Below, piece after piece: positions 1 through 34,227 of a DNA stretch of 34,227 nucleotides. Each line of letters begins with the position of its first letter. The first letter of the stretch is position 1. The stretch is taken from assembly GCA_013204395.1 (NCBI GenBank), contig JABMNZ010000010.1:1-34227 (forward strand). The letters run 5' to 3'. The position numbers and the translations under genes were made by a program. Source of the stretch: Parcubacteria group bacterium (GTDB lineage Bacteria; Patescibacteriota; Patescibacteriia; UBA9934; GWF2-40-263). Under the pieces are notes generated by a model that searched no databases, was not told the origin of the DNA, and saw only the letters and a list, made by a program, of their open reading frames with translations.

Positions 1-872
1 GCTTAACGGGTTACCTTATGTTGACAGCACTGAAAGGGTCGACACTTCCAATGCTTAGCATCCATCGTTTACGGCGTGGACTACTGGGGCATCTAATCCC
101 ATTCGCTCCCCACGCTTTCGTCCCTGAGCGTCAGAACCGTCCTAGCAAGCTGCCTTCGCATTTGGTGTTCCTGCTGATATTAACGGATTTAACCCCTACA
201 CCAGCAATTCCACTTGCCTCTCCCAGCCTCTAGTCTAATAGTTTTTCTCGCGGTCCCTATGTTAAGCAAATGGCTTTAACCAGAAACTTATTAAACCGCC
301 TACACACTCTTTACGCCCAATAAATCCGGATAACGCTTGTCGCCTTCGTATTACCGCAGCTGCTGGCACGAAGTTTGCGGCGACTTATTCCTAAAGTACA
401 CTCAACCGAAGCTTGTTCCTTTAGAAAAGTAGTTTACACTCCGAAGAGATTCATCCTACACGCGGCGTCGCTCCTTCAGCCTTTCGGCCATTGAGGAAGA
501 TTCTTGACTGCAGTCCCCCGTAGGAGATTGAGCAGTGTCTCAGTCTCAATGAGGCGGGTCATGCTCTCACACCCGCTATCCGTCATAGGCTTGGTGGGCC
601 ATTACCTCACCAACTACCTGATGGAACATAGGCTCCTCCCTGTCCGGAATCTTGCGAAACCTTTATTGTTTTTACTTAAATAAAAACAAACCATTGACTA
701 TTAGCCCAAATTTCTTTGGGTTATGGTCATGACAGGGGTAGATTACCAATGTGTTACTCTCCCGTTTGCCACTTTCCATTCTTTCCGAAGAAAGGTGAAT
801 CGTTCAACTTGCATGCCTTAGACATGCCGCCAGCGTTCATCCTGAGCCAGGATCAAACTCTCAATATAATAT
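1..872 (-). rRNA. rrs: 16S rRNA, 5' ~870 nt (gene continues past window start)
   Basis: revcomp of 843-872 = AGAGTTTGATCCTGGCTCAGGATGAACGCTGG (16S 5' end); revcomp of ~346-370 = GTGCCAGCAGCTGCGGTAA (515 region); 806R-like GGACTACTGGGGCATCTAATCC at ~75-100; ORFs 18..233 and 716..1042 overlapping it are spurious. Confidence 0.9.
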
Positions 873-1192
873 CTCGAACCGAAGTTCGAGACTCTGCTAT
901 GATGCACTCGAAGTGCATCTCTTGGAATAAACGTTACAATCACACAGTAGATAACTGCATGATCTGGAGATGTTCAGTTGTAAAGACCTTTTTCCGAATC
1001 CACTGTGGCTTTCGGATGCGGCGGCATTGTATAAAAGCTTAGAGAAGGTGTCAATAGCTACTGGGGAATGGTTGGGGACATTGATCCAGGTGATAGTTTA
1101 TCAGTATTTAGGCTCAATTGACGGCCGAAGCTGAAGGTATTCATAGCTTCTGGCGATGGGTAAGTAACGCGTGTGGTGGATAATCATCGGGA

Positions 1193-1220
1193 TTGACTTT
1201 CGCCCAATTCGAGGTATCAT
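1193..1220 (+). promoter_or_regulatory. sigma70-like promoter (TTGACT-16-TATCAT) upstream of KH/trmD
   Basis: TTGACT at 1193-1198, 16-nt spacer, TATCAT at 1215-1220; ~100 nt upstream of 1326 ATG. Confidence 0.45.
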
Positions 1221-1325
1221 TAGGCAGTTCATTGCCCTCTGTCTGTGTCAGCATTTCATGCGGCATAGGTCGACGGACTTCTCCGGGCATTGGTACGGTA
1301 AAAGTAAACAACTGTTGTTATAGCT

Positions 1326-1715
1326 ATGGCTGACAAAGAATTTGACCAAGAGTTCGTCGAGTACATCGTTCGCGGCATCGTCAACAATCCAGATGATGTC
1401 AAAACCGAGCGTATCGTTGACGAACGTGGCGTTCTCATCACCCTCCACATCAACCAGGAGGACATGGGATATGTCATTGGTCGACAAGGTCAGACAGCTC
1501 GCGCAGTCCGCACATTGCTCAAGATCGTTGGCGCAAAGGAAAATGCACGCGTTAACCTAAAGATCTATGAGCCAGAAGGTTCACGCCGCCCACCTCGTCG
1601 TACAGATGACGAGCAGCCACGACGTCAGGAAGACGACCGTGCTCCAGTGGAAAGTGTGAATGATGACTTCGGCGGATCTGACGACGATACGTCTGTAGAC
1701 GACCTGGGAATTTAG
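1326..1715 (+). CDS. KH-domain RNA-binding protein (KhpA/YlqC-like) with acidic/Arg-rich tail
   Basis: 129 aa; ...MGYVIGRQGQTARAVRTLLKIVGA... KH fold GxxG-type motif; classically sits between rpsP and trmD. Confidence 0.8.
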   Translation: MADKEFDQEFVEYIVRGIVNNPDDVKTERIVDERGVLITLHINQEDMGYVIGRQGQTARAVRTLLKIVGAKENARVNLKIYEPEGSRRPPRRTDDEQPRRQEDDRAPVESVNDDFGGSDDDTSVDDLGI

Positions 1716-32394: not shown

Positions 32395-32408
32395 GATGGC
32401 CTCCACTT

Positions 32409-33788
32409 CTAGTTGAGTACTTTGTCGGCTTCCGTTGGTCCAAGCGAGAGCATTCTCACAGGGACCTTTAGGCAATCGTCGAGGACTGCCTTGACCAGAC
32501 GGAAGAGCTGGTCGGATGTGGCGCCACTTGGGACGTCCACGGATGTGATGTCAGGCGTGCAGGCGTTCACCTTTTCACCTAACGCTTCTGTGTAGCGCAT
32601 CTGCTCTTCGTCATTGCCTGTGCGCTGACGAAGTTCACCTTCCTGTGTGAAGTAGGTGGGGTCCTGCGTGCCGGATTGGTACCGGTGGCAGATGTTCCAT
32701 GTTCCGTTGCTTGCTACCTGGTCAAACCAGGTCAGGCACAGTCCATCGTAGGCACTTGGGCCACCGCTTGCCGCGATTGCATATCGCAGAAGTGGAAGGT
32801 CCAGGGGGCCAACGCGGATTGAGCCTTGCCAACGGTTCTCATCCTTGTGCGAGCCGGGCAGTAGATGTTCGCCCATCGCAGGGTCTGCGGTGGGCATTGG
32901 TCCGGCCCCATGACGGATCGTGTATGCGCGGTGAACCGCGATGTTGACGATTTGTCCGTTGTAACCAGCCTCTTGAAGCATTCCTTGGGCGAACCGAGGG
33001 AGTGTCCGAATGGCGCTGGTGTGGGGGTGAAATCCTGTGAAGGCGTCCGTCAGGATGCCGTGTGAGCTTTCGCCCACCAGGATTTGATCTCGGCGAAGGA
33101 TGTCGCTGAATTGATCGGCGCTTGTGATGTCCAAGCTGTGGCCAACGATCTGGAATCGACGGATGACGAAGTCCAAGAACCTGTCATCGTCGATTAGGTC
33201 GAATTCCTTCTGAGCCAGCGGACGATCCTCTGGCAAGAAGGGGAACTCACGAAGCCGCTGTAGATCTGTTCGGATCTGATCCCTTACGGCCGCAAGGCGG
33301 TCGCGTAGGTCCAGACCATTGAGATCACCTGCACGTATGGAGAGCTCGGGGTGTGATTGGTCGTAGCGCACGCTTTCACCTACGCCCGTACCGATCGTTC
33401 CTCTCGGGTTGTTCCCCCGAGCGAGCTCCTTGATGTGCGAGGCAATTCCGTGCAGCGGCGTCGCACACAGGCAAGCTTCGTGCGCCCGCATGAGGGCAAA
33501 GGGGTCGGCGACCCCAGCCTCACGCAGAGCTTTGGCTTCATTTAGCAGTCCTTCCGGATGCGCAATGAAGCGCGGGCTCATGAGGGTTGGTATTCCCTCG
33601 AAGGTGCCGCACCCCCACTGGCTGAACGCGAATTCATTACCAGAGGAGGTGCGCACACCATGACTTCCCTGGGCACCACCGATCTTGAGGATCAGTGCGG
33701 CGCCCATGGCGGTGGCAATCCTGTGAACTGCCCCACCCTTGCCACCGTCCCCAGGTCCCAGGTCGGTGACGATGTAGATCTTCTTCAT
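32409..33788 (-). CDS. adenylosuccinate synthetase family protein, divergent (PurA/PurZ-like)
   Basis: 459 aa; GDGGKGG (vs GDEGKGK), GGAQGSHGV (vs GGHNAGH), GTIGTGVGESVRYD (vs GTTGRGIGPAYEDK), TIRHGAGPMPT (vs STRVGAGPFPT), QGSIRVGPLDL (vs TTGRRRRTGWLD). Confidence 0.75.
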   Translation of the reverse strand: MKKIYIVTDLGPGDGGKGGAVHRIATAMGAALILKIGGAQGSHGVRTSSGNEFAFSQWGCGTFEGIPTLMSPRFIAHPEGLLNEAKALREAGVADPFALMRAHEACLCATPLHGIASHIKELARGNNPRGTIGTGVGESVRYDQSHPELSIRAGDLNGLDLRDRLAAVRDQIRTDLQRLREFPFLPEDRPLAQKEFDLIDDDRFLDFVIRRFQIVGHSLDITSADQFSDILRRDQILVGESSHGILTDAFTGFHPHTSAIRTLPRFAQGMLQEAGYNGQIVNIAVHRAYTIRHGAGPMPTADPAMGEHLLPGSHKDENRWQGSIRVGPLDLPLLRYAIAASGGPSAYDGLCLTWFDQVASNGTWNICHRYQSGTQDPTYFTQEGELRQRTGNDEEQMRYTEALGEKVNACTPDITSVDVPSGATSDQLFRLVKAVLDDCLKVPVRMLSLGPTEADKVLN

Positions 33789-33828
33789 CGTACTCTCCTG
33801 TTACTGGGAACGGTGGCGTGTGAGTGGT

Positions 33829-34227
33829 TCAGACCCAGTCGACCGCCGGGGGCGCTTCCTCGACGGGCGTGGTGCCCAGCTCGGTCAGCTCCTCGGCGGT
33901 CAGCGGCCAGAGGTCCGTCTTCTCACGGAACAGGTCACCGGCCTTGGGCCGACGGCTGTAGTTCTCCAGAGCCGCCTGGGCCCCGATGGGGATGTTGGAC
34001 ACCGATTCGGTCACCAGAGCCGCGTCCCGCTGGTCCAGTCCGTTCTCGGTCAGGAAGTCGCTGACACCCGTCAGAGCGAGGGTTCCTTCGGTCAGGCCCA
34101 CGATGGCGGCCTGTACCTGGGGAAGCACCTCGGTGCTCGGAAGGAGGATGACCCGATCGGGCCCGTACAGATCCTTCCAGAACGCCGTGGTGTCGCGATG
34201 GCTCCGCATCGCAAACGACATCGGAAC
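33829..34227 (-). CDS. hypothetical protein, 3' part (N-terminus beyond window end)
   Basis: open frame continues to window edge; high GC; no motif recognised. Confidence 0.4.
   Translation of the reverse strand, partial: VPMSFAMRSHRDTTAFWKDLYGPDRVILLPSTEVLPQVQAAIVGLTEGTLALTGVSDFLTENGLDQRDAALVTESVSNIPIGAQAALENYSRRPKAGDLFREKTDLWPLTAEELTELGTTPVEEAPPAVDWV

Follow-up and report, generated by a model that had tools for sequence, protein, structure and literature searches.

We analyzed a 34,227-nt contig (JABMNZ010000010.1, assembly GCA_013204395.1; this whole stretch is called the window below) and found that it alternates between two classes of genes that differ in base composition and in translation-initiation signals. 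It is a contig of a Ca. Uhrbacteria-like bacterium of the candidate phyla radiation (CPR), taken from a metagenome-assembled genome (MAG); the closest genomic relatives of its rlmN gene came from Ca. Uhrbacteria MAGs and were 74% and 63% identical. Four GC-rich blocks, here islands 1 to 4, lie within a backbone of AT-richer housekeeping genes, and the same contrast is found at the same genes in related genomes. One of the blocks, island 2, holds an array of hairpin-bounded cassettes that resembles an integron array. A GC mosaic as such is a known pattern; what is new here is the conserved dichotomy, the cassette array in a CPR genome and three RNA elements without a counterpart in Rfam.

Two gene classes in alternating blocks

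The GC content of the four islands was 56.4% (2471-10545), 53.6% (12570-17900), 58.1% (26340-27330) and 62.4% (31183-end), compared with 45.0-47.2% in the intervening backbone segments. In a sliding profile of the window, values of ~45% alternated with values of 54-65%, and the steps at the island edges were completed within ~150 nt. Windows of 300 nt had a mean GC of 0.567 in the islands and 0.457 in the backbone (Mann-Whitney p = 5e-17). The mosaic reported in a preliminary description of this DNA is therefore real, with sharp steps, although island 2, at 53.6%, does not have the ~57-63% given there. Its picture of a backbone interrupted by islands also understates the islands, which together make up 51% of the contig.

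The difference extended to the codons and the proteins. Island genes had a mean GC content at third codon positions (GC3) of 0.69, backbone genes one of 0.44 (p = 3e-6); GC at second positions (GC2) was also higher in island genes (p = 0.002), and amino-acid composition differed (p = 5e-4), with fewer FYMINK residues encoded in the islands. Of 29 codons ending in G or C, 27 were commoner in the islands, and the largest rise was in C-ending codons; island NNY codons showed a strong preference for C (TTC 0.88, TAC 0.87, ATC 0.79). Tetranucleotide signatures normalized for base composition correlated better between islands (r = 0.71) than between island and backbone (r = 0.57). In atypical base composition and codon usage the blocks thus look as recently acquired foreign islands would.

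Several relatives were compared, designated below by L numbers. L162 (GCA_041294365.1) is a sister strain from a separate assembly, 86-93% identical to the window, and L168 (GCA_016206085.1) belongs to Ca. Uhrbacteria. Among 103 called genes in six loci, a Shine-Dalgarno (SD) motif preceded 73% of the GC3-rich genes (GC3 of at least 0.62) compared with 20% of the remaining genes (Fisher p = 5e-8), whereas a TAnnnT box similar to a -10 element abutted the start codon in 0% of the GC3-rich genes and in 27% of the others (p = 2e-5). The contrast between SD-led island genes and SD-less backbone genes, which had been described before, is thus confirmed, and the operon-internal backbone genes clpP and ribH likewise lacked an SD motif. 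The 16S rRNA of L162 ends in GGATCACCTCCTT, which carries the anti-SD CCUCC, so an anti-SD exists. The same -10-like boxes preceded the orthologues in L168 and L170. A box of this kind abutting the start suggests leaderless mRNAs, and the core genes that have one at the start codon are probably leaderless, as judged from their upstream sequences. In the 10-30 nt upstream, boxes reading TACAAT, TATAA, TATAT, TATACT and TATAAT were seen a few nucleotides before the core-gene starts at 25393, 28106, 28129, 29231 and 20999.

Most island edges coincided with terminators:

2443-2470, + strand: intrinsic terminator of trmD (ACTCGC-TGCGTG-GCGAGT, then T7), which also serves the convergent last gene of island 1
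10548-10575, - strand: rlmN terminator, identified from the sequence
17905-17938: bidirectional terminator at the distal end of the island 2 array, homologous to the smc terminator of L162
27361-27390: bidirectional terminator between the NUDIX and lycopene-cyclase-like genes, with a 13-bp stem (terminator scan)
31133-31168: bidirectional terminator that borders island 4 on the left, identified from the sequence

The earlier statement that the junctions fall on terminators held for these five sites and failed at the left edge of island 3, which is a divergent promoter region. Junctions lie at terminators because the blocks are whole transcription units.

The islands occupied the same slots in relatives, down to protein identities of ~50-65%. 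Between rlmN and trmD, L162, L165 and L166 all had the gene for a nucleosidase of the PNP_UDP_1 family (PNP) and a gene for a protein resembling major vault protein (MVP), and L162 and L165 also had the gene for a 258-aa protein. On the backbone side, khpA and trmD (GC3 of 0.40-0.52) kept their synteny in L002, L083, L084, L162, L165 and L166. In four genomes the MVP-like gene had 60-61% GC and a GC3 of 0.73-0.78, compared with a GC3 of 0.45-0.66 for rlmN in the same four, and its protein was 66-71% identical to those of relatives, comparable to the core genes (63-83%). In both L168 and L170 the island 4 operon came after the backbone gene for the 631-aa protein, as in the window, and again had a GC of 0.57-0.70, a GC3 of 0.70-0.97 and SD motifs. 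Its neighbors there had a GC of 0.47-0.52, and a box of the TATACT or TACACT type immediately preceded their ATG. A contig of a second assembly (L167, below) recovered island 3, and L170 also has a NUDIX gene adjoining the lycopene-cyclase-like gene. The cores of islands 1, 2 and 4 were thus present in relatives (L162, L165, L166, L168, L170), not absent from them as recently acquired islands would be. Because the contrast is common to orthologues in relatives, it is a feature of two gene classes that is old and has been conserved, and no mark of recent foreign DNA.

We propose a chromosome of two compartments. The first would comprise widely conserved housekeeping genes of ~45% GC and a GC3 of ~0.44, SD-less and probably often leaderless. 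The second would comprise lineage-specific or accessory transcription units of 54-62% GC and a GC3 of ~0.5-0.9 (mean 0.69), SD-led, which occupy fixed slots between core genes and end at terminators. The MVP-like protein, the nucleosidase controlled by an S-adenosylmethionine (SAM) riboswitch and the PurA-like operon of island 4 are old slot residents across Uhrbacteria, and the slots would act as hot spots at which genes are gained or lost and alleles are exchanged within a Uhrbacteria gene pool that includes GC-richer members. The composition of the slots would track this shared pool, perhaps with GC-biased gene conversion adding to the effect, against a core that drifts toward AT. In island 2, a conserved promoter, leader and terminator would read into cassettes bounded by attC-like AAC...GTT hairpins. 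Taken whole, with the integron-like array in one slot and the mechanism included, we hold this model to be moderately probable.

Origin of the mosaic

Logan contigs, a separate assembly of run SRR28106091, matched the window as follows:

L171: window 840-11710, 100% identity
L173: window ~14690-16743, a match in gene content only
L001: window 18972-22928, 100% identity
L167: window 22901-34211, 99.99% identity

These contigs recovered the junctions of islands 1, 3 and 4, and the alignment with L162 ran unbroken over the junctions at 2471 (window 1774-5285) and ~12570 (window 10584-15931). At one end of the contig the outcome was different. The 5' half of a 16S rRNA gene lies at 1-868 on the - strand (Rfam SSU match, 755 bits); positions 751-1050 were 100% identical to L162, but positions 1-~740 only ~76%, with an abrupt switch at ~737-750. 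The 16S of the window was 77-81% identical to those of four relatives, which were 88-94% identical to one another. Positions 1-~740 are therefore probably a different 16S, attached by a chimeric join in a conserved 16S stretch, and the 16S of the window is unfit for taxonomy. In L162 (15430-16926 and 18076-19365), protein-coding genes and no 23S gene follow the 16S gene, so the rRNA genes are unlinked there.

Could the mosaic have arisen in assembly or binning, as a chimera of two co-occurring organisms that differ in GC? The window is a metagenome contig, its 16S switches at ~740, the exception to the reproduced junctions, and the Logan assembly was broken within island 2. The second assembler nevertheless recovered 840-11710 and 18972-34211, L162 (from another sample) and five more distant genomes alternate at the same genes, and the intergenic DNA at the junctions is poorly conserved, which makes it the least likely place for chimeric joins. 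A chimera as the cause of the mosaic is not supported and appears to us extremely improbable; we are highly confident of a native, syntenic mosaic that is not chimeric. The preliminary description had reached the same view from the position of the junctions, and their reproduction by the Logan contigs and the sister strain bears it out.

That description also implied a host genome with foreign islands, and it named high-GC Actinobacteria or Deinococcus-like bacteria as an affinity to check. Acquisition of all four islands from such a distant donor, with insertion at terminators and too little time for amelioration, would fit the sharp GC3 and k-mer contrast and the different initiation signal. 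It would also fit three segments of the window that L162 lacks (5286-7401, 8311-10583 and 15932-18736); the window in turn lacks a DHO-dehydrogenase gene that L162 has between trmD and khpA. The homologues are not those of such a donor: for the MVP-like and PurA-like proteins, the island proteins that we searched, the best ones were not in another phylum but in Ca. Uhrbacteria or other CPR bacteria. Orthologues at 47-88% protein identity hold these slots too and show the contrast in GC3 and SD; at such a distance amelioration should be complete. No integrase, tRNA target or flanking direct repeat was found at the islands, ARAGORN found no tRNA gene in the window, and a motif scan of six-frame open reading frames (ORFs) in the window and 14 related loci found no tyrosine recombinase. 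Island 2, moreover, is mostly non-coding. We consider recent acquisition from afar very improbable. The islands were also examined as a prophage or defence island, and this was rejected: PHROGs gave a weak lipoprotein match and a PurZ-type match only, and PADLOC a weak NUDIX match only. Neither phage nor plasmid collections showed DNA similarity to the region 12290-15320.

We calculated the synonymous divergence (dS, Nei-Gojobori) between the window and L162 for genes of both classes:

trmD, core: 0.68
rlmN, core: 0.64
rpsP, core: 0.54
smc, core: 0.87
khpA, core: 0.12
258-aa gene, island: 0.12 (dN/dS 0.25, GC3 0.57)
MVP-like gene, island: 0.21
PNP gene, island: 0.35
cassette-4 ORF, island: 0.08

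Values for island genes (0.08-0.35) were 2-10 times lower than those for the flanking core genes (0.54-0.87), khpA (0.12) excepted, and the non-coding pieces of island 2 were 71-99% identical to L162. We read the low dS of the islands as a sign of recent allele exchange between lineages, to which constraint by codon bias could contribute.

Purely vertical inheritance would account for the mosaic if selection on translation, expression or mRNA stability held the GC3 and the SD motifs of one gene class. The conservation of the contrast in orthologues over long distances and the strong preference for C-ending NNY codons speak for it, and strong codon bias yields a reduced dS. On this explanation one would not expect to find rpsP (the sole ribosomal protein gene), clpP and hsp20 in the AT-rich class, or differences in GC2 and amino-acid composition; the 258-aa gene combines a GC3 of only 0.57 with a dS of 0.12 and a dN/dS of 0.25, and the slots are polymorphic for presence and absence. 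We therefore think it rather unlikely, though less so than recent foreign origin. Several observations nonetheless weigh against our own model. The lower dS of GC3-rich genes could stem from codon-usage constraint instead of exchange; the core segment of khpA and the 16S upstream region is low in dS too; and the PNP gene, the 800-nt RNA (below) and parts of island 2 are no closer between strains than the core is. Confirmation by the second assembly leaves out 16743-18972. The sample consists of 34 kb and loci of ~20 kb, and the two-class pattern applies to these. Recombination or gene flow may be what keeps the GC contrast lasting; candidate causes of the contrast are a GC-richer shared pool, GC-biased gene conversion or both, or gene-specific selection.

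Flexible genomic islands at fixed chromosomal positions are known from the pangenomes of marine Alteromonas and Prochlorococcus. The window shares with them atypical blocks in the same slots, variable content and signs of exchange between lineages. Its slots differ in keeping the MVP-like gene, the PNP gene and the PurA-like operon over deep divergence without a tRNA gene or integrase. Its blocks account for half of the DNA sampled, and they are SD-led where the core is leaderless or SD-less. In the Lawrence-Ochman model, compositionally atypical islands acquired by horizontal gene transfer (HGT) ameliorate over time. The window resembles such islands in the sharp departure of its blocks from the rest of the genome in GC, GC3 and codon usage, but its contrast is undecayed and common to distant orthologues, and the donor signature is not foreign. 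A tempting inference of cross-phylum HGT or of a chimera is thereby removed. CPR genomes may hold two gene classes of different composition and initiation mode over long evolutionary times, which would bear on gene calling, binning and HGT detection. Detectors of HGT that rely on composition would flag half of this contig, and one gene in it was called on the wrong strand (see island 4 below).

The cassette array between rpsP and smc

Island 2 did not conform to the earlier picture of the islands as blocks of genes. Its longest ORF encodes 195 aa, in the standard code or with any stop reassigned, and it is mostly non-coding. Alternative genetic codes in which TGA, TAG or TAA is sense were tried and gave no coherent long ORFs. 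Substitutions relative to L162 in 12534-15833 had no 3-periodicity, unlike those in rlmN and rpsP, where mismatches were concentrated on third codon positions. The raised GC content of this island is due to RNA helices, hairpins and GC3-rich mini-ORFs. Its components are:

12302-12527, + strand: entry module (promoter scan, inverted repeat, six-genome alignment)
12527-17880, + strand: cassette array of nine units (repeats, hairpin covariation)
12939-12980 (weak), 13919-13985, 14366-14410, 15265-15309, 15920-15961, 16387-16428, 16743-16783, 17064-17108 and 17837-17880: the nine hairpins
12599-12832, + strand: 77-aa ORF, signal-peptide-like
13086-13320, + strand: structured RNA of ~240 nt ("block B") with a long closing helix and four internal helices
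14460-15262, + strand: structured RNA of ~800 nt that fills cassette 3, with GNRA-capped helices and long-range pairings
15408-15746, + strand: 112-aa ORF
16002-16337, - strand: 111-aa coiled-coil ORF, reversed, with its own promoter
16500-16661, + strand: Cys-rich peptide of ~53 aa, copy 1
~16808-16972, + strand: Cys-rich peptide of ~53 aa, paralogous copy 2
17183-17770, + strand: 195-aa membrane protein

At least five relatives (L002, L083, L162, L165, L166) have the array at this locus, and in L084 the leader and the 240-nt RNA alone precede the contig end. The entry module opens with the palindrome CTAAAnTTAG, followed by a promoter (TTGACA-17-TAGTAT, 12346-12374, + strand) that is invariant in six genomes and reads into the array, which may be transcribed from it. 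A leader of ~150 nt carries the motif UCUGGGGAGAGAGUA, also invariant in the six genomes, and forms two hairpins with compensatory changes, the second of which, at 12476-12527, is an intrinsic terminator. The genomes cease to be homologous at TTTTTTGTT, a GTT after this terminator. Beyond it the next element follows immediately in L084, and 0.2-2 kb are inserted in the window, L165 and L083. From its sequence, the promoter-leader-terminator unit (12346-12527) resembles a riboswitch, an attenuator or a small RNA of a kind not yet described. A motif related to that of the leader, GGAGAGAGA, recurs in the 240-nt RNA.

The hairpins that divide the array are imperfect, 41-67 nt long and spaced 321-980 nt apart, with the form YYYAAC-N5-stem-loop-stem-N4/5-GTTRRR and loops of 3-35 nt. 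Ten sites were aligned: AAC and GTT were invariant in all of them, 9 of 16 pairs had double changes, and 92% of cells were paired, compared with 23-46% in shifted controls; none of 500 shuffles reached the score. A covariance model built on them found nine sites in the window, all in a stretch of 5 kb, six in L162, five in L002, seven in L083 and two in L166, and nothing else in 258 kb. None is followed by a U-tract. Cassette order differed in L083, where the coiled-coil cassette lies ahead of the RNA cassette, and homology between the window and L162 broke inside the hairpin at 15920-15961. Extra units follow the leader in the window, L165 and L083, and strain differences were also seen at the distal end of the array. 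In L166 this locus is occupied by a long series of small SD-led ORFs, all in one orientation. Several cassettes close with a composite 3' module, in which a CCACCAGG-N6-CCTGGTGG hairpin and a CCTCAAGC-N8-GCTTGAGG hairpin precede the AAC...GTT hairpin (window 14269-14412 and 17780-17880; L083 519-556, 2037-2087, 2613-2662 and 6214-6280), and the unit of recombination or termination may be larger than the single hairpin that was modeled. A reading of the 94-nt repeats as a diversity-generating retroelement or retron was rejected on inspection, the mismatches not being A-specific and no reverse transcriptase being found. The REP elements of the RayT gene next to island 2 were likewise dismissed as the source of the hairpins, since the sequences differ and the hairpins are confined to the array.

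This architecture invites comparison with integrons and with CALINs, clusters of attC sites lacking an integrase as defined for IntegronFinder (PMC9024848). Like these, island 2 has short cassettes split by imperfect AAC...GTT palindromes in which structure is kept over sequence, a promoter at one end, small co-oriented ORFs lacking known function, and a content and order of cassettes that vary by strain, with a breakpoint inside a site. The hairpins have the attC layout of R'' (RYYYAAC), L'', a variable loop, L' and R' (GTTRRRY), with R' reading GTTGAGG, GTTGGGG, GTTGGGA or GTTGAGT. Island 2 is unlike them in that no IntI integrase was found, in three cassettes that are non-coding or RNA-bearing and in its CPR host; we found no report of integrons or attC sites in CPR bacteria. 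On this analysis the array appears integron-like, resembling a CALIN, and we do not file it as an integron.

A number of findings weigh against an integron-like nature. No IntI was found and no long ORF exists in or near the arrays of the window, L162 and L002, a scan of 15 sources being negative. At 41-67 nt the hairpins are shorter than typical attC sites (usually ~57-141 nt), and they have a symmetric 2x2 or 3x3 internal loop (columns 12-14 and 32-34) without clear extrahelical bases. In shared cassettes the hairpin interiors do not travel consistently with either neighbor, and the hairpins flanking cassette 5 are 94% identical, a poor fit to simple attC x attC insertion. Island 2 could instead be an operon of several RNAs in which the hairpins are terminator or RNA-processing elements, and the strains would then differ by deletion or homologous recombination. 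That no integrase turned up, that near-identical hairpins surround cassette 5 and that a conserved promoter reads into the array all suit such an operon, as does the position of the hairpins at the 3' ends of RNAs and ORFs, beside other conserved 3' hairpin modules (repeats D3, D4 and D9). It leaves unaccounted for the attC signature (invariant AAC and GTT, covarying stem, variable loops), the missing U-tracts, the shuffled order of cassettes among genomes, and the accumulation of insertions right behind the leader with homology stopping at a GTT. We judge the RNA operon a serious possibility, if on balance a doubtful one. For the integron-like interpretation, site-specific recombination of cassettes at the hairpins is itself a tentative proposal, somewhere between unlikely and doubtful.

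The cassettes carry two structured RNAs. The 240-nt RNA is kept in L162, L165, L084 and L083, and 21 of its 81 consensus pairs are compensatory across five genomes. The 800-nt RNA is kept in L162, L002 and L083, that is, in four Uhrbacteria sequences so far; RNAalifold gave 155 pairs with 50 double changes, and 93% of cells were paired, compared with 32-41% in shifted controls. Its GNRA loops read on the + strand. A search of 12100-18150 with Rfam 15 found no family at E <= 1. Narrower searches with the 240-nt and 800-nt RNAs gave only spurious snoRNA matches of 12-15 bits, the sole match of the 800-nt RNA up to E = 10 being a 15-bit one on the opposite strand. An rRNA, tRNA, tmRNA or other known non-coding RNA (ncRNA) was sought in island 2 and, as a check, in L084, with Rfam (gathering and E-value thresholds) and ARAGORN, and none was found. 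A pattern scan of viral contigs did not find the core of the 800-nt RNA. Large "ornate" bacterial ncRNAs are represented by GOLLD, ROOL and OLE (PMC12286853). The 800-nt RNA is like them in size, multiple helices, GNRA loops, strong covariation and variable or mobile context, and unlike them in having no Rfam 15 match and in lying inside a hairpin-bounded cassette. No report of large ncRNAs of CPR bacteria was found in the literature. Three RNA elements without an Rfam family are defined closely enough for follow-up, the ~800-nt one being in the size class of GOLLD, ROOL and OLE.

The cassette ORFs are small and SD-led. The 111-aa protein has a homologue, 44% identical, at a different position in the L083 array; its ORF contains a perfect tandem duplication of 21 nt (16204-16245, - strand) that encodes the repeated heptad-like VRDEVTQ. 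The Cys-rich peptide has a homologue in L162 (19626-19802 in reverse-complement coordinates). These ~53-aa peptides have a hydrophobic N-terminus and the C-terminal motif CxC(E/D/A)PxP(E/D)Wx3-4CxC, and from such features they could be zinc-binding or similar to ribosomally synthesized and post-translationally modified peptides (RiPPs). A shared 3' module of ~94 nt, 86% identical between the two, follows each window copy.

If the integron-like interpretation is true, an array of this type in CPR bacteria widens the known range and cargo of such platforms. Going further, island 2 might be a sedentary integron-like platform served by a recombinase that is encoded elsewhere or of a new type, with an attenuator-controlled promoter and a large-RNA cargo that perhaps acts with a vault-like shell, and the split into AT-rich leaderless and GC-rich SD-led genes might be general and actively maintained in Uhrbacteria; we regard this extension as speculative and unlikely.

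Genes of the backbone and of islands 1, 3 and 4

The left part of the window contains:

1326-1715, + strand: khpA, backbone (Pfam KH_KhpA-B), without SD
1770-2405, + strand: trmD, backbone (Pfam tRNA_m1G_MT), without SD
2471-10489, - strand: island 1, nine SD-led genes in one orientation (called on L171, 100% identical; Pfam)
2471-3247, - strand: gene for a 258-aa protein
3459-5180, - strand: gene for an MVP/vault-like protein of 573 aa
5350-7303, - strand: four small genes
7364-8008, - strand: PNP_UDP_1 nucleosidase gene (Pfam)
8160-8264, - strand: SAM-I riboswitch (RF00162) upstream of the PNP_UDP_1 gene
8383-9549, - strand: gene for a 388-aa membrane protein
9677-10489, - strand: gene for a 270-aa protein
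10549-10521, - strand: promoter-like site of island 1, TTGACA-17-TATCTT (promoter scan)
10584-11633, - strand: rlmN, backbone (Pfam)
11668-12171, - strand: rpsP, backbone (Pfam)

From its domains, the protein encoded at 3459-5180 appears to belong to the MVP family: it has vault repeats and a Band-7/SPFH region, with matches to the MVP shoulder (PF11978, 96 bits) and PF17795 (57 bits) and weak ones to PF01505 and PF17794. Its named homologues were mainly from Ca. Uhrbacteria (~55% identity), then from Anaerolineae and DPANN archaea. Of ~90 homologues in total, many belonged to Uhrbacteria and DPANN archaea. Bacterial MVP homologues have been reported from Myxococcales, Cytophagales and Oscillatoriales (bioRxiv 10.1101/872010). 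The window protein is like these in its vault repeats, MVP shoulder and Band-7/SPFH region, and unlike them in being shorter, at 573 aa, and in belonging to a family rich in Uhrbacteria and DPANN members; we found no report of a Uhrbacteria MVP in the literature. Exact-protein look-ups of trmD, of the MVP-like protein with a 580-aa start and of KhpA gave no match, probably because other start codons had been called.

The SAM-I riboswitch scored 57.3 bits, above the RF00162 gathering score of 44.4, and a terminator-like hairpin (8145-8131) lies between it and the PNP_UDP_1 gene, which is similar to nucleosidases of methylthioadenosine and S-adenosylhomocysteine (MTA/SAH). It is predicted to control this gene. 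The pair is kept in L162, L165 and L166, with a riboswitch match also in L162 and L166, and in L082 and L083 the riboswitch adjoins rlmN directly. The riboswitch DNA was better conserved than rlmN in L082 (94% compared with 84%).

The right part of the window contains:

18102-18725, - strand: RayT-type IS200-like Y1 transposase gene (Pfam Y1_Tnp), within 17976-18725
18735-26185: backbone genes smc, nrnA, clpP, vanW-like, hsp20 and trmB (Pfam), 44-46% GC, SD-less, several with a -10 box just before the ATG
26323-27314: island 3, two genes
26481-26864, - strand: 127-aa ORF of island 3
26892-27314, + strand: NUDIX hydrolase of island 3 (Pfam; weak PADLOC match PDC-S07)
27393-31126: backbone genes for a lycopene-cyclase-like protein, RibE, RibH and a 631-aa nucleotidyltransferase-domain protein (Pfam), which look leaderless, with TATAA, TATAT or TATACT before the start
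31210-34227, - strand: island 4, an SD-led operon truncated by the contig end (Pfam, NCBIfam, PHROG)
31210-32394, - strand: 394-aa protein with a helix-hairpin-helix-like N-terminus
32409-33788, - strand: CPR-type PurA/PurZ-like synthetase
33829-34227+, - strand: gene of unassigned product

In island 4, the + strand ORF at 31183-32412, called as a 403-aa gene on L167, is the antisense shadow of the - strand gene at 31210-32394, which has a GC3 of 0.87 and an L168 orthologue on the same strand. Homologues of the PurA-like protein are CPR-wide, occurring in Uhrbacteria (62-67%), Spechtbacteria and Pacebacteria. Its best profile was the phage PurZ-type phrog_1211 (128 bits), ahead of Pfam PurA (103 bits), and it did not reach equivalog level, the NCBIfam PurA models scoring at most 66 bits against cut-offs of 368-700.

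The RayT gene, at the edge of island 2, is the sole mobility gene in the window. Paired REP-like hairpins (GGCAGGCTGAAGCCAGCC...) bracket it at 17976-18086 and 18602-18722, and it is absent from L162. An in-frame start region is duplicated there (18041-18085 and 18678-18722). The backbone order smc-nrnA-clpP-vanW-hsp20-...-ribE is colinear in L168, trmB excepted. The smc gene of L168 contains an intein with a LAGLIDADG domain, and that of the window encodes only 754 aa.

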